A stretch of DNA of 64,000 nucleotides from a virus. Position numbers and translations under genes: made by a program. The notes below the pieces were generated by a model. The model did no database searches. It had not been told where the DNA came from and saw nothing but the letters and a program-made list of their open reading frames with translations. The stretch spans positions 1-64,000 of IMG/VR virus record IMGVR_UViG_3300028920_001037. One strand, written 5' to 3'. Below are positions 2,503-30,836 of the stretch, piece by piece (within the stretch, counting starts at the first letter, position 1; the number at the start of each line of letters is the position of its first letter).

Positions 2503-3924
2503 TTACCAATTATGTAAATTTTCATGTCTATCTAATACCGCTTGAAATCCCCAATTCCAGTTAGGTTTAAGATCTTTGGAATGAGAAAGAAAAAGAACTT
2601 TAGCTTTTGGTTTTTTTGGTTCTGGAGCAAACATATCACTAAATATTACAACCCCATCACATTTAGTTTCATCAGCATAATCCAAGACCTCTTGAAAGTC
2701 TGTACCTCCCCTACCACAAATTTTAAAAGTCTTTTTGGCAGTCTTTAATTTAGTTTCTATTTGTTTTATCTCTGTATCAAACAGAACGTATATCAGTTCA
2801 GCATGTTTGATTATCTTATTAATTACAGCAAAGCCTTCAGCTAAATCATCATCACTCATGGAACCAGAAACATCAACTGCAAAAATAATCTTAGTCTTTA
2901 AGAATCTTCTATGACCAGGATAAAGCAGGTCGAATCTTCTATTTGCTTTAAGTCTTGAATTAACTCTTGCATATGTTTCAACGGACTTTTTAAATTTCCT
3001 TATGATTTCTTTATAGGAAATCTTAGGTTCGTTAGCGGCTAGAATTTCAGCAATATAATCTCCTGTATGTTTTCCCCATGCTTTAATTCTATCTTTGTTT
3101 TTATCTACATAGTTTTTAACATCAGCATCAAACATATCATTCTTTCCCCAACCATTATTTGCTGTTCCGTTAGGATCGAAATAGTCTTTGACACCTTCTT
3201 GTGTATTATCATATTCTTTAAAACCGTCTTTATCTTTGTTTTGACCTTTGCCTTGACCTTGACCTTCGCCTTCATCTTCACCATTCTGTTCTTCTTGGTC
3301 TTGACCTTTGCCTTCTCCTTTGTCTTGACCTTTGTCTTCCCCTTCTTGATCTTGACCTTCTCCTTGCCCCTGTTGAGCTTGTTGCTGAGCTTTGTCAATC
3401 ATTTCTTGCTTTTCTTCATCGGTCATTGAATCCCAGATTTGCTTTATCATTTCATTAATTTGTTGTTGTCTATCATAAAGCTGTCTGAAATATTCTTCAA
3501 AACAATCTTTTTCTGGAAGATTGAACTGTTGTGCAGTCGGAATTAAATCTTCTAATGAAGTATCACCCTGAAGAAAAGCCATTGTATTCTGGCGAATAAG
3601 TTCATCAATGGCAATGTTAGAAGACAACGCAGAAATTTGTCTTGGCTCCTTAAGCCTTGTTGTACAATGTCTTAATAAAACCTTAAAAAAAGTATGAACC
3701 ATAACCATCTCCAAATATTCAACTGGCATCATATTAACAAAATTTGGATTGAAAGTTATTACAGGATGACGACCAGTAATATTAATACCAAAAGTTTCTT
3801 GATTGGGATCTGGATTAAAGTTAAACTGTGATGCTATTCCTAATAATATTGCATCACTAGTAAACCAATCCATTAAAACTTTCTGTATTTTCTTTTCAGC
3901 TTTTTTTACTTTGTCTTCATCCAT
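2503..3924 (-). CDS. DUF2201-type metallopeptidase-like domain + VWA domain protein
   Basis: DVSGSM MIDAS, FDT, GRGGTDF, acidic/Gln-rich linker; adjacent to a MoxR-type ATPase. Confidence 0.85.
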   Translation of the reverse strand: MDEDKVKKAEKKIQKVLMDWFTSDAILLGIASQFNFNPDPNQETFGINITGRHPVITFNPNFVNMMPVEYLEMVMVHTFFKVLLRHCTTRLKEPRQISALSSNIAIDELIRQNTMAFLQGDTSLEDLIPTAQQFNLPEKDCFEEYFRQLYDRQQQINEMIKQIWDSMTDEEKQEMIDKAQQQAQQGQGEGQDQEGEDKGQDKGEGKGQDQEEQNGEDEGEGQGQGKGQNKDKDGFKEYDNTQEGVKDYFDPNGTANNGWGKNDMFDADVKNYVDKNKDRIKAWGKHTGDYIAEILAANEPKISYKEIIRKFKKSVETYARVNSRLKANRRFDLLYPGHRRFLKTKIIFAVDVSGSMSDDDLAEGFAVINKIIKHAELIYVLFDTEIKQIETKLKTAKKTFKICGRGGTDFQEVLDYADETKCDGVVIFSDMFAPEPKKPKAKVLFLSHSKDLKPNWNWGFQAVLDRHENLHNW

Positions 3925-5141
3925 TACTTTAACCAGGGTTTATCATTATCATCGTCCGGATAACCATCAAGTCCTAAGTCACTATCGAAATCATTTTGAT
4001 CATTATCGTTCTCATGAATCATTCTTTCAACATCTTTCTCATGCTGGTCTTTACCTCTAACAACATCAACAAAGTAGTTAACAAGTTTGTCAGAATGTTC
4101 TAACAATGTATTCTGCCAAGTTTCTTGGTTGTTAGTTGCCTGATTGATAAGTCCAAAGAAGTGCGCGATAATCTCTTTAGGAACAGTACTAAGGTACTTA
4201 TAAACATTATGTGCATATTCTTCACCTGCTTTTCTTGCGATAAACAGACTATCGATATGCTGTTTAATATAGACTGCAAGTTCATCATTAATATTAATAA
4301 GATCCTGATTAGGTAGACTCTTAATTGTCTTTTCCAAATCCTTATTCCAATTAGTCACAATGAGACCAACATTAATACCCTTCATGTTTTCTTTAACATG
4401 CATACAGAACTTTGAAGCGGCGCCGATACCAACGATTGTGCTGGCAACCAGTTTTAATTTGTAATCTACATCTTGAAGAATTTCGGGATGGTTATTAATA
4501 ATATCAGAAAGTCTTTTCCAAGAACGGCGTGACTGATAGACTTCACCTGTTTTCTTTTTTGTTGGTGGGTCTAAATAGTTTGCGGAGTTCTTTGATATGA
4601 ATCCGATAACATATTTGTTAACCTTATTTTTAAGTGCCCAATCAATCCATTCTTCTTTATCGGGAAGAAAAGGAACTTTGTTAAATCTATCAAGAAGAGT
4701 GACTTCAAGTTCAGTAACATCGTAATCAGTATCATCACCGAAAGGATTGATAGCTGCGATAACTCTTGTTTCGGGTGGAAGTTTCTTTCCACAAAGTTTA
4801 CGGTTGAGAACCATATCTTGTACACATTGGAGAACTTCAGGCTTTGCACGGTTGAGTTCATCAAGAAAGATAACTACTTTCTCTCCTTCTTTCGGCCACC
4901 ACCAAGGTTGACAAAAGATTGTCACCTTAGTATGGTCAATCTCTGCACGGTCTGGCAAACCAATAAGGTCACCGGCATCAGCCATCTGTGAACAGAAAAG
5001 AATAATTACTCGGAATCCTTTTTCTTCCCAGTATTCTTTTACAAATTCTGATTTACCAACGCCGTGAATTGCCTCAAGCATGATTGCTTGGTCAGCAGGA
5101 GTCGTATCAAAGATCAGCTTCATATCTTTAATATTAGCCAT
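3924..5141 (-). CDS. MoxR-like AAA+ ATPase
   Basis: HGVGKS Walker A, DLIGLP, FLDELNRA Walker B, AAINP, LLDRF, SRRSW. Confidence 0.9.
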   Translation of the reverse strand: MANIKDMKLIFDTTPADQAIMLEAIHGVGKSEFVKEYWEEKGFRVIILFCSQMADAGDLIGLPDRAEIDHTKVTIFCQPWWWPKEGEKVVIFLDELNRAKPEVLQCVQDMVLNRKLCGKKLPPETRVIAAINPFGDDTDYDVTELEVTLLDRFNKVPFLPDKEEWIDWALKNKVNKYVIGFISKNSANYLDPPTKKKTGEVYQSRRSWKRLSDIINNHPEILQDVDYKLKLVASTIVGIGAASKFCMHVKENMKGINVGLIVTNWNKDLEKTIKSLPNQDLININDELAVYIKQHIDSLFIARKAGEEYAHNVYKYLSTVPKEIIAHFFGLINQATNNQETWQNTLLEHSDKLVNYFVDVVRGKDQHEKDVERMIHENDNDQNDFDSDLGLDGYPDDDNDKPWLK

Positions 5142-5354: not shown

Positions 5355-5396
5355 TATTTATATACATAATATAATACATCTGCATAGATTTGTCAA
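5355..5396 (-). promoter_or_regulatory. Tandem early (TTGACA-N17-TATATT) and late (TATAAATA) promoters
   Basis: -35 at 5391-5396, -10 at 5368-5373, TATAAATA at 5355-5362. Confidence 0.75.
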
Positions 5397-5406
5397 GTTA
5401 TTTAGT

Positions 5407-5556
5407 TTAGTCAGTCTTTTCTTCTTCTTCATTTTTGTTTTTTTGTTCTACGAATGGAACCCATTTACCGCATTTACAAAGTTTTTCTCTTGGTGCATTA
5501 TCAATTCTCATATCTGGTTCAGCACCGCAATCACACTTGGCTATGAAATAATTCAT
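5407..5556 (-). CDS. Small zinc-ribbon protein (49 aa)
   Basis: Manual translation MNYFIAKCDCG...CKCGKW...; AAAGGA RBS. Confidence 0.55.
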   Translation of the reverse strand: MNYFIAKCDCGAEPDMRIDNAPREKLCKCGKWVPFVEQKNKNEEEEKTD

Positions 5557-5568
5557 AATAAATCCTTT

Positions 5569-5904
5569 CTAAATAACTTGAGGTAGCCAGACTATAAAGG
5601 CCATCCACAATATATGTAATATATTATCAGTAACTATTTGACTCCAAGGAAAACAAACATTAGTTGCAAATATATGTGAACCTTTTTTATCCATGAACCA
5701 CGATACAAAGTTAGTTCTGTCGATAATATAATGTTGAACTGCGATGGCTAGCAATTGCCACCATGCAAGACCACAAAGCAAAAAAGGTATCATATATGTT
5801 ACAACATGGAGAAAGCATTTCCATGAAGACTTCTTTTTGTTTTGTGCAACATCATCCCATTGTATGAGATAGTCACCAATCAAATGTGCATATATCCAAT
5901 GCAT
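5569..5904 (-). CDS. DUF3307 family membrane protein
   Basis: AHLIGDYLIQ...K...H...Y...HYIID...DNILH motif set. Confidence 0.85.
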   Translation of the reverse strand: MHWIYAHLIGDYLIQWDDVAQNKKKSSWKCFLHVVTYMIPFLLCGLAWWQLLAIAVQHYIIDRTNFVSWFMDKKGSHIFATNVCFPWSQIVTDNILHILWMAFIVWLPQVI

Positions 5905-5916
5905 AATTACCTCTTT

Positions 5917-6894
5917 CTAAGTACAACTCCAATATGTTATTTTTCTTTTAATATTACTTTCCATTCTATCTAGTCTTTCCATTAACATTTTAACAGAAAC
6001 ATATTCCGTATCTTGTTTTTGCATATTAGATTCTGAACCGTACCATTGTTCTATACAGTTAGCTAATAGTTTCTGGACTAGTTCTCTCTGTGGTCTTTCA
6101 GGTACAGCTTTACTATTCACAAAGACTGAATCAAGTTCTTTTAATCTTCTTTCAAAGAACTCTTCAAACTTAGTATAACTTCCCCATTCACCTGCACGCA
6201 TGGCTTTACATTCTTCTTTATTTCTTGTAAGGTCTAGATCACCTTCTGTAAGAAGTTGGTGTATAAGGTCAAGCAGTCTAAGAGAATGATAACTCATTTT
6301 AACATCATAACCATGCTTTTCATAAAGTGGTAGTCTGTTTGAGTTGTCGTTCTTATGTTCTGTTTCCCAGCGTACTGCTTCCCTTCTTATTCTCGCAAAT
6401 TGAGAATAAGCATAACCTTTAAATGATTGATACATTTTCTTTGAAAGGAATAACTTTCTTTGATCCCTTATCATCCAACCAATATCATGTGCATATGTAA
6501 CTAAGTTTCTCTTAACGAAAAGAACTTCCGTAAGGTTTGGAGAACCATTAGATACAAGATCAAAGAAATTGGTTAGTGAATGCCAAGCAGCTTCATAAAC
6601 TTTATCATGCTTGCCTTTAGTTATAACAAGTTTTTGGCCTTCACCTTTGCATTCCTTGTTCTTAAACTTAGGCACATTATTGTCATAACCAAGTATAAAT
6701 CCATAAGCCTGTGGATAAAGGCATTTATGTGGATCCATAACAACACCAACTATGTCATAGTCCGAATCCGGATTATTACATTCGTAGGCATGGCTACCCA
6801 TTATACATTCCATTAAAAGGTTATCAACCATCCATTGTTCTTCTGGTTTGAACCTTTGTTCTGCAAAATGTTGTGTTAATTTTTTGTCTTTCAT
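5917..6894 (-). CDS. Nucleotidyltransferase (RlaP/YcgL, T4 NrdC.11-like)
   Basis: GSHAY...DSDYD, GSPN..E.LF, GYAYSQ, GYDVK..YH..RL. Confidence 0.85.
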   Translation of the reverse strand: MKDKKLTQHFAEQRFKPEEQWMVDNLLMECIMGSHAYECNNPDSDYDIVGVVMDPHKCLYPQAYGFILGYDNNVPKFKNKECKGEGQKLVITKGKHDKVYEAAWHSLTNFFDLVSNGSPNLTEVLFVKRNLVTYAHDIGWMIRDQRKLFLSKKMYQSFKGYAYSQFARIRREAVRWETEHKNDNSNRLPLYEKHGYDVKMSYHSLRLLDLIHQLLTEGDLDLTRNKEECKAMRAGEWGSYTKFEEFFERRLKELDSVFVNSKAVPERPQRELVQKLLANCIEQWYGSESNMQKQDTEYVSVKMLMERLDRMESNIKRKITYWSCT

Positions 6895-7244
6895 AATTTT
6901 CCATTTGTAAATTTAGCTTCTGTATCTAAATACTTACCTGTATATAACCATACATCTTCAGCTATTTCTGTATATGATTCTTCATCATAAGGGCCACCAT
7001 GACCGCCCGAATGATATTCTGTTGTTCCAAATAATGCTGTATATTCGCAACCACAATCACTTACAAATTCTGTAAGGAAAACTCTATCTACAACATTATG
7101 TATTTTTCCTTCTCGCAACAATAATGATTTTTCAAAGACATTAAGTTCTTTATATTTCACATCAAATGGTATAAGGCTTTCATCATTAAATACTATAAAG
7201 CTAGATGATGAACTATTACTTACAAATCCTATTCTTACTTTCAT
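6891..7244 (-). CDS. GFVSNSS-motif protein 1
   Basis: N-terminus MKVRIGFVSNSSSSSF. Confidence 0.75.
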   Translation of the reverse strand: MKVRIGFVSNSSSSSFIVFNDESLIPFDVKYKELNVFEKSLLLREGKIHNVVDRVFLTEFVSDCGCEYTALFGTTEYHSGGHGGPYDEESYTEIAEDVWLYTGKYLDTEAKFTNGKL

Positions 7245-7655
7245 TTAAATCTCCACATTAAAAATACCTTGTCTACCCTTGCAAGGTATTGGTTTTTCTA
7301 ATCTTACAACATCTGTTAAGAATAAACCAAATCGTTTTGTGTTAGTACAATCTATCAAAGCATATTTAGAATGTAGTCGGTTTAACCAACCTACATCTTC
7401 AACAAAAGCTGTACATACAATGTGACCACCGAAATATGCGTCCATACTTACAGCTAGAATTTTAATAGGCCTATCTTTTTTGAATAGCCATTTAAATGAT
7501 GACTTATAATCCTTATCAAATTTCTTAGAAGCATGAATAGCTATTCGTTGTCCTTTTAAATTTTTAAATCTATCATGAGTTCTCGTTTCAATGGTTTTAT
7601 AACCATGAGAAATCCAACATGCCCAAGGTTGCCATAAAGTAATTGCTTTCAACAT
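7245..7655 (-). CDS. ASCH domain protein
   Basis: AITLWQPWA...G.KTIETR...IAIHA...PIPCKG.QG. Confidence 0.9.
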   Translation of the reverse strand: MLKAITLWQPWACWISHGYKTIETRTHDRFKNLKGQRIAIHASKKFDKDYKSSFKWLFKKDRPIKILAVSMDAYFGGHIVCTAFVEDVGWLNRLHSKYALIDCTNTKRFGLFLTDVVRLEKPIPCKGRQGIFNVEI

Positions 7656-7975
7656 TCCTCCCAGTCAAAATAAACTTTAGTTTTAGGATCTACTAAACTT
7701 TGAACTATTTCTTTTACTATTCGTTCAACATCTTCTTCAGCACCATATTCAATACTTTGAATTGTAATAATGCGTTTGTCTTTATATTTATCTAGTAACT
7801 CATTCAAACTATTTCTATCATATTCATCGTCTTCTTCATAATATTCGTTGTATTCCAAATACTTTTTCTTATTATATTCTTTCAATAATTTTGGATCGTC
7901 TTGGGCAAAATTATCAATAGAAACAATAAAACTACTACTTGAACTGTTACTTACAAACCCTGTTCTAATTTTCAT
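7649..7975 (-). CDS. GFVSNSS-motif protein 2
   Basis: N-terminus MKIRTGFVSNSSSSSF. Confidence 0.75.
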   Translation of the reverse strand: MKIRTGFVSNSSSSSFIVSIDNFAQDDPKLLKEYNKKKYLEYNEYYEEDDEYDRNSLNELLDKYKDKRIITIQSIEYGAEEDVERIVKEIVQSLVDPKTKVYFDWEEC

Positions 7976-8480
7976 CTTTATCCCCCTTCAGGAATTTTTG
8001 GAATTCTGAATATGATTTAAACTTATTTTTAATCTCCTTAATTGTTTCTTTCTTTGTAGTGTTAAATTTCTTATAAAGATATTTAACTACATCATCATTA
8101 TCAACTTCTTTCATAGAACAGATTGGACAAAACTCTTCTGGAAGACCACAATCTAAAATCCAATCACTAAAGGCCTCTTCAAGTTCTCCTTCTTCCATTC
8201 CCTCTATATCTTTAATTTCTTTTTCTTTATCATCGATATATTTACTTTTGTTGATTCTATCGATGATATATTTCTTTTTATCCAGGCCTATTTCATCATA
8301 ATCTATTTCGCTATAACTGCCTAATTTAGCACATGAGTTATGAAACTCATGACCATTAACACACATTGACATTTCCATATCTGATAAACTCATATCTCGA
8401 CCAGATTCAATCGCTCCACATACTGCACATATAAATGATGTTGTGCTTGAGTTACTTACAAATCCATATCTTTTTTTCAT
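7965..8480 (-). CDS. GFVSNSS-motif protein 3, Cys/His-rich
   Basis: MKKRYGFVSNSSTTSF followed by CxxC, CxxxH, HxxC, CPIC. Confidence 0.75.
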   Translation of the reverse strand: MKKRYGFVSNSSTTSFICAVCGAIESGRDMSLSDMEMSMCVNGHEFHNSCAKLGSYSEIDYDEIGLDKKKYIIDRINKSKYIDDKEKEIKDIEGMEEGELEEAFSDWILDCGLPEEFCPICSMKEVDNDDVVKYLYKKFNTTKKETIKEIKNKFKSYSEFQKFLKGDKDEN

Positions 8481-8481
8481 A

Positions 8482-8799
8482 TTAGTCTCCTATTGTTGCA
8501 TATGAGTCTTTTTGTTTTTTAATTAAATCTACAAATTTATATAATCCATCATAGGCTTCTTCCCAACCATCATCATCAAAACTACAATCATAGAAAAGAT
8601 CCTCAGTACATACTCGTTGAACAGATACTATTTTATTTTCTCCCATAACTTTTTCTTTTTTAAATCTAAACGTATCTTTAATAGCTTCTTGTTCTATTTT
8701 TGATAAGCTCTTCAAAATCTTATTATAAGTTTCTTTGGTTGTTATAACAACAAAAGACGAACTAGAACTATTACTTACAAATCCCATTCTGATTTTCAT
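8482..8799 (-). CDS. GFVSNSS-motif protein 4
   Basis: MKIRMGFVSNSSSSSF. Confidence 0.75.
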   Translation of the reverse strand: MKIRMGFVSNSSSSSFVVITTKETYNKILKSLSKIEQEAIKDTFRFKKEKVMGENKIVSVQRVCTEDLFYDCSFDDDGWEEAYDGLYKFVDLIKKQKDSYATIGD

Positions 8800-8811
8800 T
8801 TGGCCCTTCTT

Positions 8812-9354
8812 TCATATTTGTGAATCCTCTATAACTTTACATATTTTTCTAATCTCAGGTCTTTCAAAACTAAAATGAATAACAATATCTTTTATTATTT
8901 GTGGAATATCATTACATGAATTATGCATAACTGTCCAAGCATTTAAAACAACATTATCAAATTCTTCGGTAACATTTATATTATACATGTTTCCAAGAAT
9001 CCATTTGATTGCTGGAACTAATTCAACTACAAAGTTACCCTCTTCGTTTCCAGATGTATCTATACTGTTAATTGAACTTATTGTTTCTAAATGTTTAAGC
9101 TGGGATTTCATTTCATTTAAGTGTTTCTTATTACGAAAATGAAACTTACCGTTTTTATCTTTCCTTTCAGCTTCCAATCCTTCTTCATATTGTTCAATTC
9201 TTTCTTTCAAGTCTGTATAAAGAAAGTTAATATCAAAGTAATCAAAACCTAAAGCATGATATATTTCATGTATAAATTCTTCTGTGTTCATGTTGAACTT
9301 AACAACATAAGAAGCTGAAGAACTATTACTTACGAATCCAGATCTTATCTTCAT
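8812..9354 (-). CDS. GFVSNSS-motif protein 5 (start reassigned from 9369 to 9354)
   Basis: MKIRSGFVSNSSSASY aligns with the paralogues when started at 9354. Confidence 0.75.
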   Translation of the reverse strand: MKIRSGFVSNSSSASYVVKFNMNTEEFIHEIYHALGFDYFDINFLYTDLKERIEQYEEGLEAERKDKNGKFHFRNKKHLNEMKSQLKHLETISSINSIDTSGNEEGNFVVELVPAIKWILGNMYNINVTEEFDNVVLNAWTVMHNSCNDIPQIIKDIVIHFSFERPEIRKICKVIEDSQI

Positions 9355-9355
9355 T

Positions 9356-9709
9356 CTATCCACACTCATGTAAAATTTCTATATTACCAGAATTATGAAT
9401 CAAATCATTAAGAACATCATCATGATATGAAACTTCAACAAGAGCTAATGTTTTATCAGTATCATCATATTTCTTAATTTTCTCAATAGATTTATCATCA
9501 TCATACCAACTAGCAAGTTCCTTAATAATATCGTCTTTACCTTCAGCAACAACATTGTTATCACTATTGTAATAAGAAGCTTTTTCAATTAGCTGTAAAA
9601 TATTCATATCACTTCTACCACAATGAGGGCACTTGTTTATATTTTTATCAACAGCAATAACAAAAGAACTTGAACTACTGTTACTTACAAAACCTGTACG
9701 AATTTTCAT
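9356..9709 (-). CDS. GFVSNSS-motif protein 6
   Basis: MKIRTGFVSNSSSSSF, CPHC. Confidence 0.75.
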   Translation of the reverse strand: MKIRTGFVSNSSSSSFVIAVDKNINKCPHCGRSDMNILQLIEKASYYNSDNNVVAEGKDDIIKELASWYDDDKSIEKIKKYDDTDKTLALVEVSYHDDVLNDLIHNSGNIEILHECG

Positions 9710-10341
9710 ATCGTCAACCTTTCTGAATCATCTTTAAGATATAAGTTACACATTTTCAACAATTTACATGGTCTACAATAACCACATGCTTTATTTTTCT
9801 CAGTTGGACATTCACAAGTCCAAACATATTTTTCTAGTTTATTATTTCTAATGTCTGCTATTATACTATGTTTATCTTTCCATTTAAGGGGAAAGTTAAT
9901 CCAAATCTTTTTATTTAAAGCTTCTAAAATAGTTTGACCCATACTTTCATATTTAGAACATTGGTGCCAAAAATCATCACCACGGTGAAATCCAAACGAT
10001 ATAGTTGCATTGTCCGGCACAAACCATAATGAGTTTAACATCCAAAATGTTTGTTGTGGTAATAAATTATCAGCATATAATTTACCATAGTCAATTTTAA
10101 TAATATTATCTATTATATTCCAATTTTTCTTTTTAGCAAACTCTATAAACTTCTTTCGGTAACTTAACTCCAAAATTCTTTTTTCTTTACTGATTCCCTT
10201 TAAATCAAAATAAAGGGTATGACAACAACCGTGTTCTTTTAAAATATCATATAAAATTAATGTACTGTCATACCCACCAGACCATACAACCCAATTAGTC
10301 TTGTTTGTTGTTAAACTAGAATTATATATTGCTTTACCCAT
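9706..10341 (-). CDS. QueC-like PP-loop ATP pyrophosphatase
   Basis: SGGYDS PP-loop, PL...K, C-terminal WTC..P....CG.C.PC zinc site. Confidence 0.8.
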   Translation of the reverse strand: MGKAIYNSSLTTNKTNWVVWSGGYDSTLILYDILKEHGCCHTLYFDLKGISKEKRILELSYRKKFIEFAKKKNWNIIDNIIKIDYGKLYADNLLPQQTFWMLNSLWFVPDNATISFGFHRGDDFWHQCSKYESMGQTILEALNKKIWINFPLKWKDKHSIIADIRNNKLEKYVWTCECPTEKNKACGYCRPCKLLKMCNLYLKDDSERLTI

Positions 10342-10352
10342 TATTTAAATTT

Positions 10353-11390
10353 CTAAACATTATATATTGGACAATTCCTATGACAATCTAAAAGAGTCTT
10401 ACGAAACTTATTGACTCTTGGATGATTCCATATATCTCTAACAAAATCTTTGCATTCTAAAACATCAATACCATCAACCCATTCTCCAGAACCTTCGGCA
10501 AACGAACATGGAAAAAATTCAGCATTAACACCAATATACGAACTAAAACAACTTGATTCACAAGGTTCAGCCAACATTGCAAGTTCACCATAATCTTCTC
10601 GACCAGCAACTGCTTTGAGAAACTTATTAGCAGAACAACTGTCAAAACCAATCGGAACCTTTTTCTTAAATGCATAATCAATGAGTTTCTTAAACTCATC
10701 TTCTGTAACTGTATTGTATTTAGTTCCTCTACCCTTCTGTTTAAGTGAAAGGAATACAATAGCATTTAAACCTTTAATTCTTGGTTCATTCTTATAATCA
10801 TCAATAGTTTTAAACGCATCTTCATATGTTTCTTTACTTAACATATAATGAATATTAACCTGTTTCATTCCTCTATCGACTAGTTTCTTAACTGAATCAT
10901 AGCAAATATTATAGTTAGAATATCTTGATACAGCAACTGCTCCACATAGTTTGGCTAGCTTATCTGCTGTATCATCCGAAATATCAGCAACTGTTATATT
11001 AGGAACGATTTTCTTATACCTTGCATACTCCATCATCTTAAATAGTTCTGGATTAGATGTTGCTTGAGCGTCTGCACCAAAAGCTATTTGAGTTAATGTA
11101 TCTGGCATCTTATCCATTATCTTTTTGAATGTATCAAAAGACATATTAATTCCGTTAGGATTATTACTTTTGTAACAGAAAGGGCATAACTTTCCACCGG
11201 GTCCAGCACATTTAGTTGTAACTTCAATATCTAGAATCTCTGCACCGAATTCACAGAAGTCTGGATCTCTTTCCTTTGTACTTCCCCAACGAGCAAATAT
11301 ACCATTCTTCTTATTGAATACATAATTATATTCGGGTGAAGAAAGAATTTTATAAGTTTTATTTTCTTTAATCTCGTAAGTTGTTTCCAT
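10353..11390 (-). CDS. Radical SAM protein with Twitch/SPASM-like C-terminus (probable start 11390)
   Basis: Atypical Cx7CxxC (CAGPGGKLCPFC); C-terminal PCES...YI......PCSF...CP; RBS before METTY. Confidence 0.85.
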   Translation of the reverse strand: METTYEIKENKTYKILSSPEYNYVFNKKNGIFARWGSTKERDPDFCEFGAEILDIEVTTKCAGPGGKLCPFCYKSNNPNGINMSFDTFKKIMDKMPDTLTQIAFGADAQATSNPELFKMMEYARYKKIVPNITVADISDDTADKLAKLCGAVAVSRYSNYNICYDSVKKLVDRGMKQVNIHYMLSKETYEDAFKTIDDYKNEPRIKGLNAIVFLSLKQKGRGTKYNTVTEDEFKKLIDYAFKKKVPIGFDSCSANKFLKAVAGREDYGELAMLAEPCESSCFSSYIGVNAEFFPCSFAEGSGEWVDGIDVLECKDFVRDIWNHPRVNKFRKTLLDCHRNCPIYNV

Positions 11391-11658
11391 ACTTAACTTC
11401 CTCATGTCTTGTATCATAAATTTCAAAATCTAACAGTTTATGTCTTGGTGTAGTAATTAACAGAAATAGACCATCATGGTCACCTTTCCAATTAATATCA
11501 ATGTCTATCCTAAGTAGTCCAAATCCTGTGTGCAATCGAAAACATTTCTTAGTGATAGTTATTTCACATCCGAAATTATAAACCGGATATTCATCCCAAT
11601 TTTTTTCCGAACATATTTCTACATGACAATTTTTACTAACTGGAAAATCAATATTCAT
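11368..11658 (-). CDS. Hypothetical protein
   Basis: ORF translationally coupled to pncB. Confidence 0.5.
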   Translation of the reverse strand: MNIDFPVSKNCHVEICSEKNWDEYPVYNFGCEITITKKCFRLHTGFGLLRIDIDINWKGDHDGLFLLITTPRHKLLDFEIYDTRHEEVKYGNNLRD

Positions 11659-12905
11659 TAATAAACCGTCTCCACATCTGTTTGTTCAGGTTGAAAAATG
11701 CTCTGATACATTTGTATATAAGCTGGAGTTCCTGTTGCTTTCTTAATGTTATCGCTAAGCTTAACTGTTTGTTCTTCATTGACACCAGTTGCTTTAATAA
11801 CTATACTTAATGGTTTAATTCCAACAGAATTTGTAAGATCTGTTCCCCAACCGAAATATACTTTAAACTTATCTTTAAACTCTTCTTGTATTTTAACCAT
11901 CTTATCTACATTCAAACCATCCGAAAAGATAACCTTTTTCGTTTTAGTATCTATTCCGAACTTCTTATAATGTTCAATCATTTTATAACCGAACTTAATT
12001 GGGTCGCCCGAATCTTGTCTAACACCTACACATTTAGTTGCAAGTTCTTCGTCAAAGTCTTTAAGGAAAGCATTAGTTCCAAACGTATCTGTAAGCATGA
12101 TACTTAATGGTTCACCATAATAATCATACCATTCGTTCATAGCTTTCTTTTGGGCATCTAATAAACTCTTAGAATCAGGAAGAGTTAAACAATCTCCTGC
12201 ACTTCTTTCATACTCAATAGCTGCCCTAACCATAAAAAATTCATGAGCTTGTGTTCCTATTGGATTAAGACCAAGTTCTTTAGCCATTAAATAGTTCGAT
12301 GTTCCCAATATATTATTAGGACATTCATCTCTACAAATTTCAAGAATAGCTTTCTGCCAGTTACCCGAATGTCTTCGTCTTGTTCCAAAGTCTATAAACT
12401 TAATATCATGTTTTTTAATTATCTTTATTTTTTCTTGAAGCTTTCCAATAGCATCATTTCTCATTTTATAAATACAAGTATCGGTTAATCCTTCTAATAC
12501 CGATCTAGCAAACAGTTCGTTTATGATACCAAGAATCATTGTTTCATATAAAATCGAACATTGCCAACGATTAGTAAAATGCAAGTTGAGTTTATCATGT
12601 TGTAATTGATATGTAAATTCTGTATCATATTTTTGTCTTGCCAACATATTAATAAAATGGTCTTTATATTCTGGTTGGTTTTTTAAATATGTCAAATCAT
12701 CATAGCTAAAGCGCAGGCTTTTCATATGATTGATTTGTTCAACTAGTTCATCCATGTCAAGAAAATTGGCTAGTTTTATTGACATTGTTCTATTACTAAA
12801 CGAATAAGTAACTTTCTCATTTGGATACAGGTCATTAACAATTTGGCACATTGTTAGTTTATACTTATCCAAATCCAACATGCTATCAATAATAGGTTTA
12901 TCCAT
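11658..12905 (-). CDS. pncB: Nicotinate phosphoribosyltransferase
   Basis: LDLDKYKLTM, DFGTRRR, GTSN, GTQAHE, LTDTFG, GVRQDSGDP, IFSDGL, FGWGT, KLSD. Confidence 0.95.
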   Translation of the reverse strand: MDKPIIDSMLDLDKYKLTMCQIVNDLYPNEKVTYSFSNRTMSIKLANFLDMDELVEQINHMKSLRFSYDDLTYLKNQPEYKDHFINMLARQKYDTEFTYQLQHDKLNLHFTNRWQCSILYETMILGIINELFARSVLEGLTDTCIYKMRNDAIGKLQEKIKIIKKHDIKFIDFGTRRRHSGNWQKAILEICRDECPNNILGTSNYLMAKELGLNPIGTQAHEFFMVRAAIEYERSAGDCLTLPDSKSLLDAQKKAMNEWYDYYGEPLSIMLTDTFGTNAFLKDFDEELATKCVGVRQDSGDPIKFGYKMIEHYKKFGIDTKTKKVIFSDGLNVDKMVKIQEEFKDKFKVYFGWGTDLTNSVGIKPLSIVIKATGVNEEQTVKLSDNIKKATGTPAYIQMYQSIFQPEQTDVETVY

Positions 12906-12926
12906 ATAAAAATCCTTTCATATTAT

Positions 12927-12955
12927 AATATAATACAAAATGGGTTAAATGTCAA
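12927..12955 (-). promoter_or_regulatory. Sigma70-like early promoter (pncB operon)
   Basis: TTGACA-N17-TATATT. Confidence 0.75.
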
Positions 12956-12965
12956 GGTAAATATA

Positions 12966-13163
12966 TTAGTTACTTATTTTATTCTTTAGCCAGTAATCTC
13001 TAAATATAAAAAGCTTATCAGCAGCTTCATGTAGGTCTGCATCGGTAATTCCGTTGCCAACTTCGATTAATGTATCTAATACATCTTCAATAATTAGCCG
13101 GGCATCATCGTCTGTTAAATTCTTAACATCTTTATTTTTTTCTAAATCAAAAAAATATTTCAT
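12966..13163 (-). CDS. Hypothetical protein
   Basis: GGAG RBS; abuts the upstream gene. Confidence 0.55.
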   Translation of the reverse strand: MKYFFDLEKNKDVKNLTDDDARLIIEDVLDTLIEVGNGITDADLHEAADKLFIFRDYWLKNKISN

Positions 13164-13424
13164 TTATTCTCCAATTGAGAGGTCAATTGTTTTATTAGGG
13201 TCATCAATATTAAAATCTTTAATTGGTGGGAACTGAATTAGTTGCAGACTTTCATCTTCAAAAAAGAAGTTTAGCTTTCCACTTCCATCACCATCAACGC
13301 TAATTTTAATATCACGACTAGCTCCCTGTCGGCCAAGACTTTGAATTGCAGAACATACTTTAAAGAATTCTGCAAGTTCAGTCTTACTACCCATTACAAT
13401 CATTTTAGCTTTAAGTACATCCAT
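13164..13424 (-). CDS. Hypothetical protein (probable start MDVLK at 13424)
   Basis: G..GASR.I...VDGDG motif; AGGAG RBS. Confidence 0.55.
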   Translation of the reverse strand: MDVLKAKMIVMGSKTELAEFFKVCSAIQSLGRQGASRDIKISVDGDGSGKLNFFFEDESLQLIQFPPIKDFNIDDPNKTIDLSIGE

Positions 13425-13425
13425 A

Positions 13426-13599
13426 TTATCTCCTAAAATATTTTCTATGTTCTTCTGGCACAAGTACATGAGAAATAGGTTTAACTATTTCCCCTGCTTC
13501 AGTTACTGGTATAGCAACTAATCTTTTAATATTATTAACAATTAAAAGTGTATATAGTTTATCATCCCTAGTATCTTTATATACTTTATATCTTTTCAT
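13426..13599 (-). CDS. Hypothetical protein (probable start MKRYK)
   Basis: Immediately downstream of the promoter at 13606-13634. Confidence 0.45.
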   Translation of the reverse strand: MKRYKVYKDTRDDKLYTLLIVNNIKRLVAIPVTEAGEIVKPISHVLVPEEHRKYFRR

Positions 13600-13605
13600 A
13601 TATAT

Positions 13606-13634
13606 AATATAATACATTATTATTTAAAAGTCAA
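13606..13634 (-). promoter_or_regulatory. Sigma70-like early promoter
   Basis: TTGACT-N17-TATATT. Confidence 0.75.
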
Positions 13635-13643
13635 GTTAAAAAT

Positions 13644-13651
13644 TATAAATA
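13644..13651 (+). promoter_or_regulatory. Late promoter TATAAATA for the endonuclease gene
   Basis: Exact octamer immediately before the structured leader. Confidence 0.7.
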
Positions 13652-13658
13652 TATTAAA

Positions 13659-13740
13659 GTAGGGAGACAGATGGTTGCAACCATTTTCTTTGCCTGAACA
13701 AAGATTATCTCTACATTAACTTCAATCACCTTTCAGGAGG
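13659..13740 (+). ncRNA. Endonuclease-leader RNA motif, copy A (three-way junction + SD-sequestering pseudoknot)
   Basis: GTAGGGA/TCTCTAC, GACAG, ATGGT-TGCA-ACCAT, TTT, CTTTG-[CCTGAA]-CAAAG, ATTA; loop pairs with TTCAGG at 13732-13737 overlapping AGGAGG. Confidence 0.7.
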
Positions 13741-13744
13741 TATT

Positions 13745-14650
13745 ATGTTTTCAACAGCGGATTTTATTAAAAGAGCTAAACTTATTCATGGTAATAAATA
13801 TGATTATTCTAAAACTAATCATATCAATTCAAAAACTAAACTTTGTATTATTTGTCCAAAACATAAAGAATTTTGGACTCTTCCACATAATCATTTAAAA
13901 GGTCAGGGTTGTCCAAATTGTTACAATGAAATTCGAGGAATCAAATCGAAAATATCTAAAAAATTTTTTATTGATTCTTGTAATAAAATTCATAATAACA
14001 AATATAAATATGATATAAATACTTTCAATGGAATGACTAGCCGTATTAAAATTAAATGCCCTATTCATGGTTTATTTTTTAAAATTGCATATGCTCATTT
14101 AACTTCTAAACAGGGTTGCCAAAAATGCTCTTATGAAAGCCAACTAAAACCTTTAAGCAGTTTTATAACCGAATCTAATAAAATTCATAATAATAAATAT
14201 AAATATAACAATTTTATTTATTTAGGAGCATTTAAAAAAAGTTATATAACATGTTATATACATGGCGATTTTTTACAAGATCCGCATTCACATTTAAAAG
14301 GCCATGGTTGCCCAAAATGTAATTCATCTAAAGGTGAATTAGTTGTTGAACAATATTTAAAAGAACATAATATTAAATTTAAACGTCAATATAAATTTAA
14401 AGATTGTAAAGATAAAAAACCTTTACCTTTTGATTTTTATTTGCCTAATTTTAATATATGTATCGAATATGATGGTGAACAACATTTTGGTAAATGGTTT
14501 ACAAAAATAAAAATAGATTTTAATATTATAAAATTACATGATAATATAAAAAACGAATATTGTAAAAATAATAATATTAAACTAATAAGAATACCTTATA
14601 CTAAAATAAATAAAATTAATACTATATTATCTAATATAATGAACTATTAA
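13745..14650 (+). CDS. Free-standing homing endonuclease (DUF723-like zinc repeats + Vsr-like PD-(D/E)XK domain)
   Basis: Three H.NKY.Y...C..H..F.....HL..GC.KC repeats, SKGE, PFDFYLP...IEYDGEQH, LIRIPY; opposite strand to its neighbours. Confidence 0.85.
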   Translation: MFSTADFIKRAKLIHGNKYDYSKTNHINSKTKLCIICPKHKEFWTLPHNHLKGQGCPNCYNEIRGIKSKISKKFFIDSCNKIHNNKYKYDINTFNGMTSRIKIKCPIHGLFFKIAYAHLTSKQGCQKCSYESQLKPLSSFITESNKIHNNKYKYNNFIYLGAFKKSYITCYIHGDFLQDPHSHLKGHGCPKCNSSKGELVVEQYLKEHNIKFKRQYKFKDCKDKKPLPFDFYLPNFNICIEYDGEQHFGKWFTKIKIDFNIIKLHDNIKNEYCKNNNIKLIRIPYTKINKINTILSNIMNY

Positions 14651-15107
14651 AAGCTTTATAAAATATATTAATAGCTTTTTGTTTTAACATATCATCAACA
14701 GTATCAAAATACCAACTTACCATATTACATATAAAAGGATGCTTTTTATATAGTTCATTATCGCTTATAAGAATAATAGGTTTCCTAAATTCATACGCAA
14801 AAGCTATTTCCATGATAGTTCCTAACATAGGTCTTTCAACACCAAAGTTTTCCATATAAGCTATAAACAAATCACATGTTTTAATAGCTATATAATCTTT
14901 ATCTAATATAGCTTTAGTTGGTACATTAGATGTTAATCCATCTGGTGATACATTATCTTCACCATTCAAAGGGTTTAAAAAACAAAGGTCACCATAATTT
15001 TTACCTGTATTTTTCCAGTTAGTATAATGTTTAATTACTTTATGGCGCCACTCTCTACATTTTTCAATATTTTTTCCATCGATTATACCCGCAAGATAAA
15101 CTTTCAT
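14631..15107 (-). CDS. Nucleoside 2-deoxyribosyltransferase-like protein
   Basis: VYLAG, NPL, D..AI..CD, GT.MEIAFA...KP. Confidence 0.8.
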   Translation of the reverse strand: MKVYLAGIIDGKNIEKCREWRHKVIKHYTNWKNTGKNYGDLCFLNPLNGEDNVSPDGLTSNVPTKAILDKDYIAIKTCDLFIAYMENFGVERPMLGTIMEIAFAYEFRKPIILISDNELYKKHPFICNMVSWYFDTVDDMLKQKAINIFYKAFNSSLY

Positions 15108-15109
15108 AA

Positions 15110-15634
15110 TTAAAACCTCCTTATATTAACATCGGCTCTTTCAATTGAAGCCTTTACTGTATCTTCTAATGTATTATGAATCTTTGGTATACTTACTTTA
15201 CCAAAACCTTTATCCAACCAAACAGCTTCCCACATAATATCTGAATAACTAATTCTATATGCATTATCAGGTCTACCATAAACAACCTTATATAGTTCTC
15301 TACCAATCCAATATCCCAGTTCCCAATTAGTTGTAAGTCCAATTAATTCTCTCGTTCTTGGAATCCAAAACAAAATACAATTGGCTCTTTTCAATCCATT
15401 AAACTCCCAAAGTGGAATCCAAGATTTGTTTTTATCTGATTCAGTTTTACTTACAAACTCGGGAACAACTAATGAACCGGTGAATCCTTGTCTTTCAAAC
15501 TCTTCAATAGCAGCGAATCTCCACGAAGTTAAATGGGTTTGGTTACCTCTAACAGTCGGCCCTGCCAAAAAAATAACCGGACCTTTTACATTTTTAACCT
15601 GTTCTTTTGATTGTTCATACCTGAATACATTCAT
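15110..15634 (-). CDS. Nucleoside 2-deoxyribosyltransferase-like (type 2) protein
   Basis: IFLAGP...SWR...PE...WE..GL..A..ILFW.PR...TTN.ELG. Confidence 0.8.
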   Translation of the reverse strand: MNVFRYEQSKEQVKNVKGPVIFLAGPTVRGNQTHLTSWRFAAIEEFERQGFTGSLVVPEFVSKTESDKNKSWIPLWEFNGLKRANCILFWIPRTRELIGLTTNWELGYWIGRELYKVVYGRPDNAYRISYSDIMWEAVWLDKGFGKVSIPKIHNTLEDTVKASIERADVNIRRF

Positions 15635-16743
15635 TATAACCTCACTCTTGTTTTACTTTCTTCCCAACCCTGATTAGTTATTTCAACAAATTTTACTTTC
15701 TTTCTAAACTCTTCCCAGTTTCTACAACCAGCATAATATGAAACAGCAGATTGTAAATTGCCAATAATGTTATTAACAATTTCTTTTGTTTCACCTGTAT
15801 ATGGGATTTGACCTGATTCACCTTCAATTGAAATCGCAGTCTTTTCACTTTTAAGTTTACTTGAAGCTTCCTTACTTGCCATTCCACTATATGAAACCCA
15901 TCTAATTTCTTTTGGATTCTCTGTTAAATCACCAGCTTCATCTAACTTATCTCCGTTAGAAAGACTAGTTGAGGCCAGCATCTTTCCCAACATACACATA
16001 TCTGCACCGGCAGCTATTGCTTTGCATATATCTCCCGGTGTTTCTATTCCACCATCGGCAATTAGATATGCTGTATCTTTAACTTTTGCACAATCAAAAA
16101 CAGAAGTCAATGTAGGTAATCCAAAACCAGTATTAGTTCTTGTTGTACAAATACTGCCACCACCAATACCAACTCTTATAAAGTTAGCACCAGCATCCTG
16201 TAGTCTTGCATATCCACTCCTTGTAGCAACATTTCCGGCCATGATATTTGTTGTTACCCAATTTGGACTGTTTTTTGAAATAAACTTAATAGTTTCAATG
16301 CTTGCTTTGGTATCTCCATTTGCAACATCAACAACAAATCCAAAATTATATCTATTGGCATTTTTATATTCTAATAATCTTTCAATCCATTTTCTCCATT
16401 TAGCAACTATTCCAACAGCCAAAAAAACTGTAGGTTGTTGTTCTTCTTTAAATTCACAATCTTCATAGAATTGGATTTGTTCATTAACATTTGCAAAACA
16501 TCTATCAATAGTTACTGGTAAATTAAATTCATGTGATAGACATTTAATCATTTTAACACTACAAACTTTATCCATTGGTGAATTAATAATTGGCGCCTTT
16601 ACTATAAAAGATTCACAGTTAGCTGGTAAGAAATCAGAACCATATTTATAGCTTATATCAGCATCCGTTAGATGATCTAAATTAGAATTTCTAGGAACCA
16701 ACAACACATCATTGTACGACAATACTCTACGAATGTCATTCAT
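15634..16743 (-). CDS. IMP dehydrogenase / GMP reductase family protein (no CBS domains)
   Basis: YNDVLLVP, SPMD, DVANG, AGNVAT, VGIGGGSICTTR, IADGG, GMAS, EG. Confidence 0.9.
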   Translation of the reverse strand: MNDIRRVLSYNDVLLVPRNSNLDHLTDADISYKYGSDFLPANCESFIVKAPIINSPMDKVCSVKMIKCLSHEFNLPVTIDRCFANVNEQIQFYEDCEFKEEQQPTVFLAVGIVAKWRKWIERLLEYKNANRYNFGFVVDVANGDTKASIETIKFISKNSPNWVTTNIMAGNVATRSGYARLQDAGANFIRVGIGGGSICTTRTNTGFGLPTLTSVFDCAKVKDTAYLIADGGIETPGDICKAIAAGADMCMLGKMLASTSLSNGDKLDEAGDLTENPKEIRWVSYSGMASKEASSKLKSEKTAISIEGESGQIPYTGETKEIVNNIIGNLQSAVSYYAGCRNWEEFRKKVKFVEITNQGWEESKTRVRL

Positions 16744-27576: not shown

Positions 27577-27951
27577 TTAATACATCTCTGAAGCTGGTGT
27601 TCCGTAGTCTTCGTCTGTTCCGTAACCTGCTGAAGCTAATGTATCGGCATCTGCTTCTACATCGCTCATATCAACAGGCTCATCATATTCTTCCTCTGCG
27701 CTAGATTCAATATAGCTTTTAAGAGCTGAAAGAATATTATAGTCATCATCAAAGACTTGTGGGTTAGCTGATTTCATATCACTAACAAAATCTGCTATAA
27801 TACTTTTAACATCACCCATCATTTCTTCAAGAGTGTTTTTCTTTTCTGTTTCCTTAGAGAGGTCTACGACTTCTTCAGGACCATCTTTTAAATTGAGATT
27901 AAGGTTTTCTTCTTGCGATAAACCTTCTTTTAAATATTTTTCGAAACTCAT
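27577..27951 (-). CDS. Acidic protein with capsid-targeting-like N-terminus
   Basis: MSFEKYLKE. Confidence 0.65.
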   Translation of the reverse strand: MSFEKYLKEGLSQEENLNLNLKDGPEEVVDLSKETEKKNTLEEMMGDVKSIIADFVSDMKSANPQVFDDDYNILSALKSYIESSAEEEYDEPVDMSDVEADADTLASAGYGTDEDYGTPASEMY

Positions 27952-27952
27952 A

Positions 27953-28246
27953 TTAAATATCCTCTATTTCATATGCATTTAAATCCCAAATAAATTCTTT
28001 AATAGTTAAACCATGCTGTTCTAAAATTTTATTAATATCTTTTCTCATATTTATCATAAAAGCTTTTTGTTCTGGAGTTGGTTTATAATTTTTCATCGTT
28101 TGTCCAGTAACGCCGCGACCCATAAAAGCTTTTGTAAACCTATGTTCTTTTGGTCTAATTCGCATGGTAATATCATATTCTGCCACTTCTTCATTTGGAT
28201 TTATATCTGAGTATATATTTTCTTTTAAATATTTTTCGAAACTCAT
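27953..28246 (-). CDS. Protein with capsid-targeting-like N-terminus
   Basis: MSFEKYLKE. Confidence 0.65.
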   Translation of the reverse strand: MSFEKYLKENIYSDINPNEEVAEYDITMRIRPKEHRFTKAFMGRGVTGQTMKNYKPTPEQKAFMINMRKDINKILEQHGLTIKEFIWDLNAYEIEDI

Positions 28247-28247
28247 A

Positions 28248-28892
28248 TTAATAGCCCCCTTCTTTATCTAGCTTATCACTTTTCTGATAAGTCATATGGT
28301 CTGGATTAGTTTTAATATCTTCTGGTTTTTCATAGACATCAAAAGTTTCTTCGTTGTCATTAAGTTTTGTATAGGCCATTTCCATTGAGGTCTGGTCTTC
28401 TTTGAGTTCTTCTCTTGTGAAGATAAATCTGTTATAAATCTTTTCTTCGCCTTCATCATTTGAAACATCATAGTTCTTATCTCTATCTTCAGTTATAGCA
28501 GATTCGTCTATAAAATTATAATCTTTAATTTTCTTCGCTAACGCTTTAGCAATATTATTATAGGCAGGATATTTTTCGGATGCTCTCCAGTAGAACTTAG
28601 TTGGGTTTTTAAGTTCAACCCATTCTGAAAGAGCCTCAACAAAAGCATTTTCAACTTCTTTTGTTTCTTCTATGGTTTCGGTATTGCCTAACCATTTCTT
28701 ACGGAGTTGAAGTTTCCATGCACCGTCATCATATTCTGTACCTTCTGATTCAGCTATACATGAATATGTTGTTCCACCAACTTTAAAATAAATTTCGAAC
28801 CCACCTTTCGCTCTATCAAACCAGACATTACATCTGCCCATTCTCATGTTTGGTGATTCTAATTCTTCTGTAAGATACTTTTGAAAACTCAT
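28248..28892 (-). CDS. Protein with capsid-targeting-like N-terminus
   Basis: MSFQKYLTE; AAGGAG RBS. Confidence 0.65.
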   Translation of the reverse strand: MSFQKYLTEELESPNMRMGRCNVWFDRAKGGFEIYFKVGGTTYSCIAESEGTEYDDGAWKLQLRKKWLGNTETIEETKEVENAFVEALSEWVELKNPTKFYWRASEKYPAYNNIAKALAKKIKDYNFIDESAITEDRDKNYDVSNDEGEEKIYNRFIFTREELKEDQTSMEMAYTKLNDNEETFDVYEKPEDIKTNPDHMTYQKSDKLDKEGGY

Positions 28893-28935
28893 GTTGACTC
28901 CTTTAAAAATTAAAAGCTTATAACACTCTTTATTA

Positions 28936-28943
28936 TATTTATA
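28936..28943 (-). promoter_or_regulatory. Late promoter TATAAATA
   Basis: Exact intergenic octamer. Confidence 0.7.
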
Positions 28944-28946
28944 ATA

Positions 28947-30131: not shown

Positions 30132-30388
30132 TTTTTATTCTCCATATATTTTTTATCTGTTCTTCTAACTATTTTATAACCTTTTGTATATAAATAATTT
30201 ATTATATTGCAAGATTCTTTAAATGCTGGATCTTGATTGTTAACTGCATATAACAAATCAACTTCGGCATTTTTAATAGCATCTATCATTATATTTCTAG
30301 TTTCTTCTATAATTTGAAGATCTATATCATCACTTTTACTTTCAAGTATTTCATTTTCTTTCAGTTGTAAAAAATCTTTAAATCTCAT
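30128..30388 (-). CDS. Protein with capsid-targeting-like N-terminus
   Basis: MRFKDFLQLKE. Confidence 0.6.
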   Translation of the reverse strand: MRFKDFLQLKENEILESKSDDIDLQIIEETRNIMIDAIKNAEVDLLYAVNNQDPAFKESCNIINYLYTKGYKIVRRTDKKYMENKK

Positions 30389-30648: not shown

Positions 30649-30659
30649 ATTTATATCCT

Positions 30660-30836
30660 TTACATAAATAAGTCTTTTATTTTTGACCAATTTGTTTTTG
30701 GTTGTTGTGGTGTTGATTTAGCTTTTTTAACTTTTGTTTGTAAAGTTTTTATAGTATCAACAGAATCGGATTTGATTTCCATTGAGTACGAAATACTTAA
30801 AAAAATTAAAGTAATTATAAGTATTATTTTTTTCAT
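30660..30836 (-). CDS. Small secreted protein (58 aa)
   Basis: Manual translation MKKIILIITLIFLSISYSMEIKSD...; signal-peptide-like; ATGA overlap with the upstream gene. Confidence 0.55.
   Translation of the reverse strand: MKKIILIITLIFLSISYSMEIKSDSVDTIKTLQTKVKKAKSTPQQPKTNWSKIKDLFM

Follow-up and report, generated by a model that had tools for sequence, protein, structure and literature searches.

A serine-rich N-terminal tag on unrelated phage proteins is linked to a Twitch/SPASM radical-SAM enzyme: A candidate protein-modification module

The stretch of viral DNA analyzed here, hereafter the window, comprises positions 1 to 64,000 (64,000 nucleotides) of the IMG/VR record IMGVR_UViG_3300028920_001037. 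It contains a run of minus-strand genes in which six otherwise dissimilar proteins, which we call clients, share a serine-rich tag over their first 16 residues and lie downstream of a gene for a radical S-adenosylmethionine (SAM) enzyme. The full record is 75 kb long and is rated 29% complete by CheckV, and its source is an uncultured, T4-like phage of low GC content; the sequencing runs that carry its DNA are marine-sediment metagenomes, with no RNA run among those listed. The gene order is radical-SAM enzyme, QueC-like protein, five tagged proteins, ASCH protein, sixth tagged protein and nucleotidyltransferase (Table 1). An earlier note, made from the letters of this DNA, had described this order and the six open reading frames (ORFs) with nearly identical starts, and both descriptions hold, all six ORFs being present on the minus strand. 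No further copy of the tag was found in the window or in the whole 75-kb record.

In the six window ORFs the tag occupies the first 16 residues and reads MK[IVK]R.GFVSNSS[ST][STA]S[FY]. Over this length the copies show 82.5% protein identity and use the same codon at 60% of the identical residues, and their serine positions alternate between AGY and TCN codons. A degenerate DNA pattern for the tag, used to scan IMG/VR, gave at least 120 matching stretches, often tandem arrays of two to six genes among the matches listed. From all loci taken, 400 distinct tagged proteins were collected, with G6, N10, S11 and S12 fixed or restricted by the search pattern. The tag lies at the true start in 395 of these proteins, the residues K2 (98%), R4 (99.8%), F7 (99%) and V8 (96%) are strongly conserved, and both serine codon classes occur at every serine position. 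The mixed serine codons and the low sharing of codons indicate that selection acts on the peptide and not on the DNA, as the earlier note had argued from the codon switching in the window. A relaxed pattern, in which only M1, K/R2, R/K4 and N10-S/T11-S/T12 were fixed, yielded 599 proteins, with G6 at 95%, F7 at 98% and V8 at 96%; residue 9 in this set is Ser in 90%, Thr in 8% and Ala in 1.5%. The consensus cassette can be written M-K-x-R-x-G-F-V-[S/T]-N-S-S-S-S-S-F. A profile of 124 diverse members finds 25,998 matches (E ≤ 1e-3) among 1.84 billion cluster representatives at 50% identity, and full-text literature searches found no published description of the tag.

Some tagged proteins depart from this pattern. 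Rare variants shift in all copies of one genome, as with S6 plus A9 (locus L195) and F/Y6 (L210); L201 shows a mixture. At tag position 7, two proteins carry His. In addition, the database proteins P0030-P0038 carry two tags, one of them internal, and look as if two neighboring tagged genes had been joined into one ORF; possible origins are true fusion, a lost stop and a recoded stop codon.

The bodies that follow the tag are unrelated to one another, in keeping with their initial description as unalignable. The six window bodies each fall in a different BLAST cluster, with no detectable similarity, and 388 bodies divide into 113 BLAST clusters; when the 17 largest clusters were compared by hhalign, 1 of 136 pairs scored above 90%, with a median probability of 0.2%. 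Client lengths range from ~70 to 390 residues, with a median of 131. The bodies are acidic, with a median isoelectric point (pI) of 4.5 and 84% below 5, compared with a median of 7.7 and 19% for neighboring ORFs. Pfam families were absent from 124 sampled clients except for a single unrelated DUF match, a Pfam/NCBIfam search of the six window proteins gave no match, and among PHROGs only phrog_7397 recurs for tagged proteins. Tagged protein 4 belongs to the largest body family, in whose alignment C18, C40, C118 and C121 are invariant, and the orthologues of tagged protein 1 show 31-65% identity. One client, tagged protein 1 (9356-9709), was modeled with AlphaFold2 (AF2), from 16 sequences and with a predicted local distance difference test (pLDDT) score of 78. 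In this model residues 1-11 score below 50 and are unpacked, and residues 13-21 form strand 1 of a small α/β body, with which a Foldseek search of the PDB gave no match at E ≤ 1e-3. In this one model, a tag segment that is invariant yet unpacked would fit a recognition or substrate peptide.

The enzyme at the head of the run is, on the evidence of its predicted structure, a Twitch/SPASM radical-SAM protein with a peptide-maturase fold and the partial TIM-barrel core of its superfamily. The AF2 model (pLDDT 91.9) starts with a four-stranded sheet, residues 18-47, with no helices there. Used as a Foldseek query it gives 328 PDB matches at E ≤ 1e-3, all of those listed being radical-SAM enzymes. 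The peptide maturases SuiB and SkfB are the top structural matches (VIA-align Z scores of 23.9 and 22.3), followed by CteB (18.7) and by the anaerobic sulfatase-maturating enzyme (anSME) anSMEcpe and PqqE (both 18.3), and the pyruvate formate-lyase activating enzyme (PFL-AE) ranks far lower (Z of 13.0 versus 23.9). The superposition on SuiB and SkfB spans model residues 20..356, the N-terminal sheet included. The cysteine triad, which in this superfamily binds the SAM-cleaving [4Fe-4S] cluster, is C73-x7-C81-x2-C84; the earlier note was right to call the enzyme a Twitch/SPASM type with an unusual Cx7CxxC. Among 21 homologues C73 and C84 never change and C81 is retained in at least 90%; the loop ahead of the CxxC is of variable length, and in bacterial relatives the triad takes the canonical form Cx3Cx2C. 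Four C-terminal cysteines, C264, C289, C307 and C352, are also invariant in the 21 homologues, a number that would fit one auxiliary cluster, as in Twitch domains (SPASM domains have two).

In sequence searches the window enzyme matches phrog_7293 at E 9e-126 and Pfam Radical_SAM at E 3e-4, but its PF04055 score of 21.4 bits lies below the cut-off of 29.5 (a bacterial relative scores 60.9 bits), and Pfam SPASM is matched at only 0.14, compared with 2.9e-8 for a bacterial relative. For a profile of the 21 homologues, matches lie in the BtrN twitch region (E 1.4e-4) and the SkfB core (E 7e-3), and phmmer of the enzyme against the PDB gave no match. Pentatricopeptide repeat (PPR) matches in the profile search were discarded as repeat artefacts. 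The Slopekvirus enzyme has been annotated as a "peptide-modifying radical SAM" (PMC9960720). In Cronobacter phage vB_CsaM_leB the enzyme gene is in two pieces, and in Klebsiella phage Kpn35c1 it is split at a region that differs also by a GIY-YIG homing-endonuclease gene (PMC9960720).

The link between radical-SAM enzyme and tag is strongly supported by sequence comparisons made in both directions. In the forward test, 36 of the 49 IMG/VR records that bear the tag also had an enzyme homologue, and the fraction rises to 12 of 12 for records at least 85% complete and 9 of 9 for those at least 90% complete. The possibility raised beforehand by the earlier note, that tagged proteins occur without this enzyme clade, was thus not seen in any near-complete genome. 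For the reverse test, 80 IMG/VR loci were chosen by enzyme homology alone and tag ORFs were sought within 8 kb. Such ORFs were found in 63 of the 80, all on the enzyme strand and downstream of the enzyme in 54, with the first tag ORF starting less than 100 nt after the enzyme end in 16 loci; the relaxed pattern turned five more of the loci positive. Gene maps of 21 loci, with enzyme identities of 30-58%, place the tag array a few genes downstream in 18 and revealed no other conserved neighbor family. The phage form of the locus is the enzyme gene followed by a same-strand array of one to nine client genes. Among 50,697 records of cultured phages, 172 encode the enzyme and 175 a tagged protein, and the two sets have almost the same counts per genus; the carriers include Klebsiella, Enterobacter, Cronobacter, Citrobacter, Escherichia and other phages.

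The state of the tag also varies together with the enzyme. In 164 of 168 multicopy loci all copies agree at residue 9, and no locus combines Ser with Thr. Where phages have Thr at this position (T9), their records carry a separate enzyme clade, and in the genome of L195 the S6 plus A9 variant is present in all four copies, with differing codons. Because the residue-9 clades are few, this concerted variation is supporting evidence but is not statistically independent. The enzyme tree separates the window clade (phage clade I) from clade II with support of 100/100, and clade II joins the T9 phage group to a bacterial group that is linked to STAND genes.

The other genes of the run are not part of this association. 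In the same 49 records the QueC-like gene was found in 2, the ASCH gene in 1 and the nucleotidyltransferase gene in 11, compared with 36 for the enzyme, which marks all three as bystanders and not system members. The suggestion that the run encodes a protein-modification system therefore stands in part: what remains is the coupling of the enzyme to a portable tag that sits on folded proteins unrelated to one another, and the QueC-like, ASCH and nucleotidyltransferase proteins, which had been counted in, drop out. The QueC-like assignment itself is sound (38.8 bits with Pfam against a cut-off of 22, an SGGYDS motif and a C-terminal Cys cluster). This gene separates the enzyme from the tag array in the window. 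Upstream of the enzyme, a 96-residue ORF (11368-11658) considered as a conserved third partner has no homologue in 98 related loci and was therefore rejected. For tagged protein 2, the ATG at 9354 (MKIRSGF...) is the most likely start, and not 9369. A megablast search of the region against cultured phages gave no match. No late promoter (TATAAATA) was found on the strand of the tag genes from 5362 to 16643, a σ70-like site is present at 12955-12927, and the tag array here apparently lies in an early-type operon.

Table 1. Genes of the enzyme and tag run in the window
Feature	Coordinates	Strand	Remarks
Radical-SAM enzyme, Twitch/SPASM peptide-maturase type	10353..11426	-	Maximal ORF from TTG; probable start ATG at 11390
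QueC-like PP-loop gene	9706-10341	-	Pfam match and SGGYDS motif
Tagged protein 1, 117 aa	9356..9709	-	MKIRTGFVSNSSSSSF, then CPHC motif and small α/β body
Tagged protein 2, 180 aa	8812..9354	-	MKIRSGFVSNSSSASY; from ATG at 9354; singleton body cluster
Tagged protein 3, 105 aa	8482..8799	-	MKIRMGFVSNSSSSSF
Tagged protein 4, 171 aa	7965..8480	-	MKKRYGFVSNSSTTSF, then body with two CxxC motifs
Tagged protein 5, 108 aa	7649..7975	-	MKIRTGFVSNSSSSSF; very acidic body
ASCH gene	7245-7655	-	Between tagged proteins 5 and 6
Tagged protein 6, 117 aa	6891..7244	-	MKVRIGFVSNSSSSSF
Nucleotidyltransferase gene	5917-6894	-	After tagged protein 6

The module is not confined to phages. In species-representative bacterial and archaeal genomes (GTDB) the tag pattern matches 93 stretches, and the enzyme lies within 8 kb in 39 of 80 such tag loci. 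The bacterial form has a single conserved tagged gene directly upstream of the enzyme, and in Veillonella the two genes overlap at the enzyme start. The order of genes is a metallo-β-lactamase (MBL)-fold protein, a STAND NTPase, a 140-residue protein, a 137-residue tagged protein, the enzyme and a 300-residue protein; the core of this order is common to 14 of 21 mapped bacterial loci, some of which extend to the MBL-fold gene on one side and the 300-residue protein on the other. The STAND NTPase (c1) measures 845-984 residues in its complete copies and has either Trypsin_2 or SMEK_N as its N-terminal domain; it matches Avs2 in PADLOC (7.5e-16) and NACHT in Pfam (7e-6). The MBL protein matches LmuA/Avs1a, and the 300-residue protein has a PF21648-like C terminus. 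Hosts of the STAND-type loci include isolates of Acetatifactor muris, Lachnobacterium bovis and Veillonella parvula as well as metagenome-assembled genomes (MAGs) of Verrucomicrobia, Terriglobales and Sulfuricurvum; the loci that bear the operon (L221, L254, L262, L277, L284, L249, L276 and L283) come from several phyla. No STAND gene was found beside the module in the window.

These features make the bacterial operon a candidate Avs-type defense system with a radical-SAM-matured component. A published operon of similar make-up is the KpAvs2 operon of Klebsiella pneumoniae, which encodes a radical-SAM protein of unknown role, Avap1 (Bechon et al. 2024, PMC11564622), and a small protein, Avap2, that binds the STAND sensor Avs2 constitutively (PMC11564622) and was connected to DUF6375 by HHpred (PMC11564622). 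The likeness, a STAND sensor together with a radical-SAM protein and a small protein, is one of gene composition. With HMMER, PF19902 (DUF6375) matches neither the bacterial 137-residue tagged protein nor its 140-residue neighbor, even at E 10. It was also absent from a sample of 400 scored genomes drawn from the class to which the Gammaproteobacteria-titled MAG with L263 belongs.

Collectively, we think it somewhat more probable than the contrary that enzyme and tag form a two-component module, in which the Twitch/SPASM enzyme modifies client proteins marked by the N-terminal cassette. The free, basic N-terminal segment (approximately residues 1-12) would enter the enzyme active site, where the 5′-deoxyadenosyl radical would take a hydrogen from a residue in F7-S12. 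The outcome would be a covalent change, either an oxidation with a loss of 2 Da or an intramolecular cross-link, with the Cβ of residue 9 as one candidate site. F7-V8-[S/T]9 of the tag has the aromatic-x-x form of the three-residue cyclophane motif, and the two outcomes that rank highest would be a cyclophane joining aromatic residue 7 to Cβ of residue 9, and a carbonyl. That the tag is covalently modified at all, and with what site and chemistry, is an inference.

Several observations weigh against such a module. Thirteen of the 49 tag-bearing records have no enzyme, all of them 40% complete or less, and in Slopekvirus-type phages ~19 kb separate the enzyme from the two tagged genes. Related phages do not count as phylogenetically independent cases of co-occurrence. 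Residue 9 is Ala or Gly in a few tagged proteins, which indicates that a hydroxyl is not essential there, and the view of the tag as an unpacked segment comes from the AF2 model of one client.

Comparison with characterized radical-SAM systems sharpens what the module would be. The maturases of ribosomally synthesized and posttranslationally modified peptides (RiPPs), such as SuiB/SuiA (streptide, 5v1t), SkfB/SkfA (6efn), CteB and PqqE, have the same fold class plus an auxiliary-cluster domain and, as here, their enzyme genes adjoin one or several substrate genes with a common short conserved peptide. Unlike RiPP precursors, the clients are 70-390 residues long with unrelated folded bodies, and the system is phage-encoded. 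Moreover, the conserved piece lies at the extreme N terminus, where it is probably itself the reactive part, and the tag has no Cys and no Lys-Trp or Glu-Tyr pair. In the 21 loci with enzyme identities of 30-58% no conserved protease or exporter was found. With regard to a RiPP recognition element, a PqqD-like domain in or beside the enzyme, the N-terminal region of the enzyme model has four strands and no helices, and the 96-residue ORF upstream is not conserved. A classic RiPP system, with a short leader/core precursor and release by a protease, was rejected given the median client length of 131 residues and the folded bodies. The VMAP ternary conflict systems, in which a radical-SAM/SPASM protein is predicted to modify FxSxx peptides (Kaur et al. 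2020, PMC7159879), are similar in that such enzymes are paired with conserved-motif peptides in NTPase conflict systems. However, the VMAP and cyclophane motifs are C-terminal, in peptides that are processed by a protease, whereas the tag is N-terminal.

The earlier note had cited the sulfatase-maturating enzymes, an analogy that the tag itself does not bear out. As with anSME/AtsB (4k36-4k39), one SPASM enzyme would serve many whole-protein clients through a short N-terminal Ser motif, the client role here being a prediction. However, the anSME substrate motif C/S-x-P/A-x-R is absent from the tag, and no sulfatase Pfam match was obtained in 124 clients. Sulfatases are mutually homologous with the motif as active site, whereas the tagged bodies are unrelated, and unlike anSME the enzyme has only four conserved C-terminal cysteines, enough for one auxiliary cluster. 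A glycyl-radical/activase system, which has an R-V-x-G-[FY] loop toward the C terminus of a large barrel enzyme and an activase that lacks a SPASM domain, was also rejected: R4 and G6 of the tag are one residue closer together, and the tag is N-terminal on small proteins.

An unlikely alternative is that the tag serves for docking only, binding the enzyme or a third partner unchanged, so that the tagged proteins would be adaptors or regulators directing the enzyme to other targets, or would themselves be controlled by the enzyme. The co-occurrence and synteny data fit this as well. In addition, strand addition to the N-terminal β-sheet of the enzyme model (residues 18-47), which VIA-align overlays on the N-terminal regions of SuiB and SkfB, could be a way to bind a peptide, and in the KpAvs2 operon Avap2 is bound constitutively to the STAND sensor (PMC11564622). 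Two features argue for modification over docking. The overlap of the bacterial tagged gene with the enzyme start is a classic precursor-maturase arrangement, and the 14 consecutive near-invariant residues of the tag exceed what a docking strand usually needs. Moreover, we know of no radical-SAM enzyme with exchangeable adaptor subunits.

It is distinctly improbable that the tag works apart from the enzyme, for example in degradation or stability, localization or assembly into a common complex, with the enzyme linked by coregulation or by shared ancestry of the gene block. The 19-kb separation in Slopekvirus-type phages would suit this explanation, and the common acidity of the bodies is a hint that they go to one place or act on one class of target. 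On the other hand, the linkage holds at enzyme identities of 30-58%, in phages and in several bacterial phyla, as other neighbors change; the tag state shifts in concert with the enzyme clade; and none of the 12 records of 85% completeness or more lacks either component.

Very unlikely is the view that the tagged proteins are one fast-evolving paralogue family, whose N terminus is simply its best-conserved structural strand and is unmodified. In the single client model residues 13-21 (SSSFVIAV) do form strand 1, and by eye many bodies show an acidic or SD-x-x-G loop after one of the later strands. Such a second shared motif (strand then SD-x-x-G) was considered as a mark of one domain, but hhalign and alignment do not support it. 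The single related pair in the hhalign comparison, the many BLAST clusters and the wide range of client lengths all argue against common descent, residues 1-11 are invariant and yet unpacked, and the linkage to the enzyme would be left unexplained. For the same reasons of unrelated bodies and, in one model, an unpacked segment, the idea that the tag is a modified catalytic strand of one enzyme family, offered in the earlier note, was not supported.

Least credible of all is a capsid-targeting sequence (CTS) like that of the T4 internal proteins, which spans about 10 N-terminal residues up to a Glu cleavage site, loading diverse cargo into the head for injection: the source phage is T4-like, and T4 is a known precedent for unrelated proteins of one phage with a common short N-terminal peptide, but the serine tag is enzyme-linked, has no Glu cleavage site and lies in an apparent early operon with no late promoter on its strand over 5362-16643, the acidic bodies contrast with the basic internal proteins of T4, the module occurs also in bacterial chromosomes beside STAND genes, and a separate family resembling the T4 CTS is present in the same window, at 27577-33959.

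This second tag family (27577-33959, minus strand) comprises MRFK[DE][YF]..xE on five proteins of 86-483 residues and MSF[EQK]KYLxE on four. Its resemblance to the T4 CTS makes the bearers candidates for head-packaged, injected proteins, and one of them (31129-32580, 483 residues) resembles a nucleotidyltransferase of the CCA-adding/poly(A)-polymerase type with an HD domain. Elsewhere in the window, at 2503-5141 on the minus strand, a 473-residue protein has a Gly/Glu/Gln-rich linker and, by eye, a C terminus like a von Willebrand factor A (vWA) domain; it adjoins a 405-residue protein that, also by eye, resembles a MoxR-type AAA ATPase.

Returning to the proposed modification module, its relatives in STAND operons make a role in phage-host conflict likely. 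A more specific and unlikely proposal is that tag and enzyme are a common currency of this conflict: STAND operons would use a radical-SAM-matured tagged protein for licensing or sensing, and large phages, with their own enzyme and arrays of acidic effectors or decoys that need this maturation too, might interfere, the maturation being a new radical cross-link or oxidation that the portable cassette directs onto whole proteins. The bacterial STAND linkage may in turn explain the radical-SAM accessory gene of a published defense system. If the tag is modified, it would mark a very large, unannotated protein-maturation system of ~26,000 clusters at 50% identity, and the portable 16-residue cassette would extend RiPP-type logic to whole proteins and offer a possible handle for protein engineering. 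Because cultured Klebsiella, Enterobacter, Cronobacter and Escherichia phages (Slopekvirus and relatives) carry the pair, the proposal can be tested at the bench.

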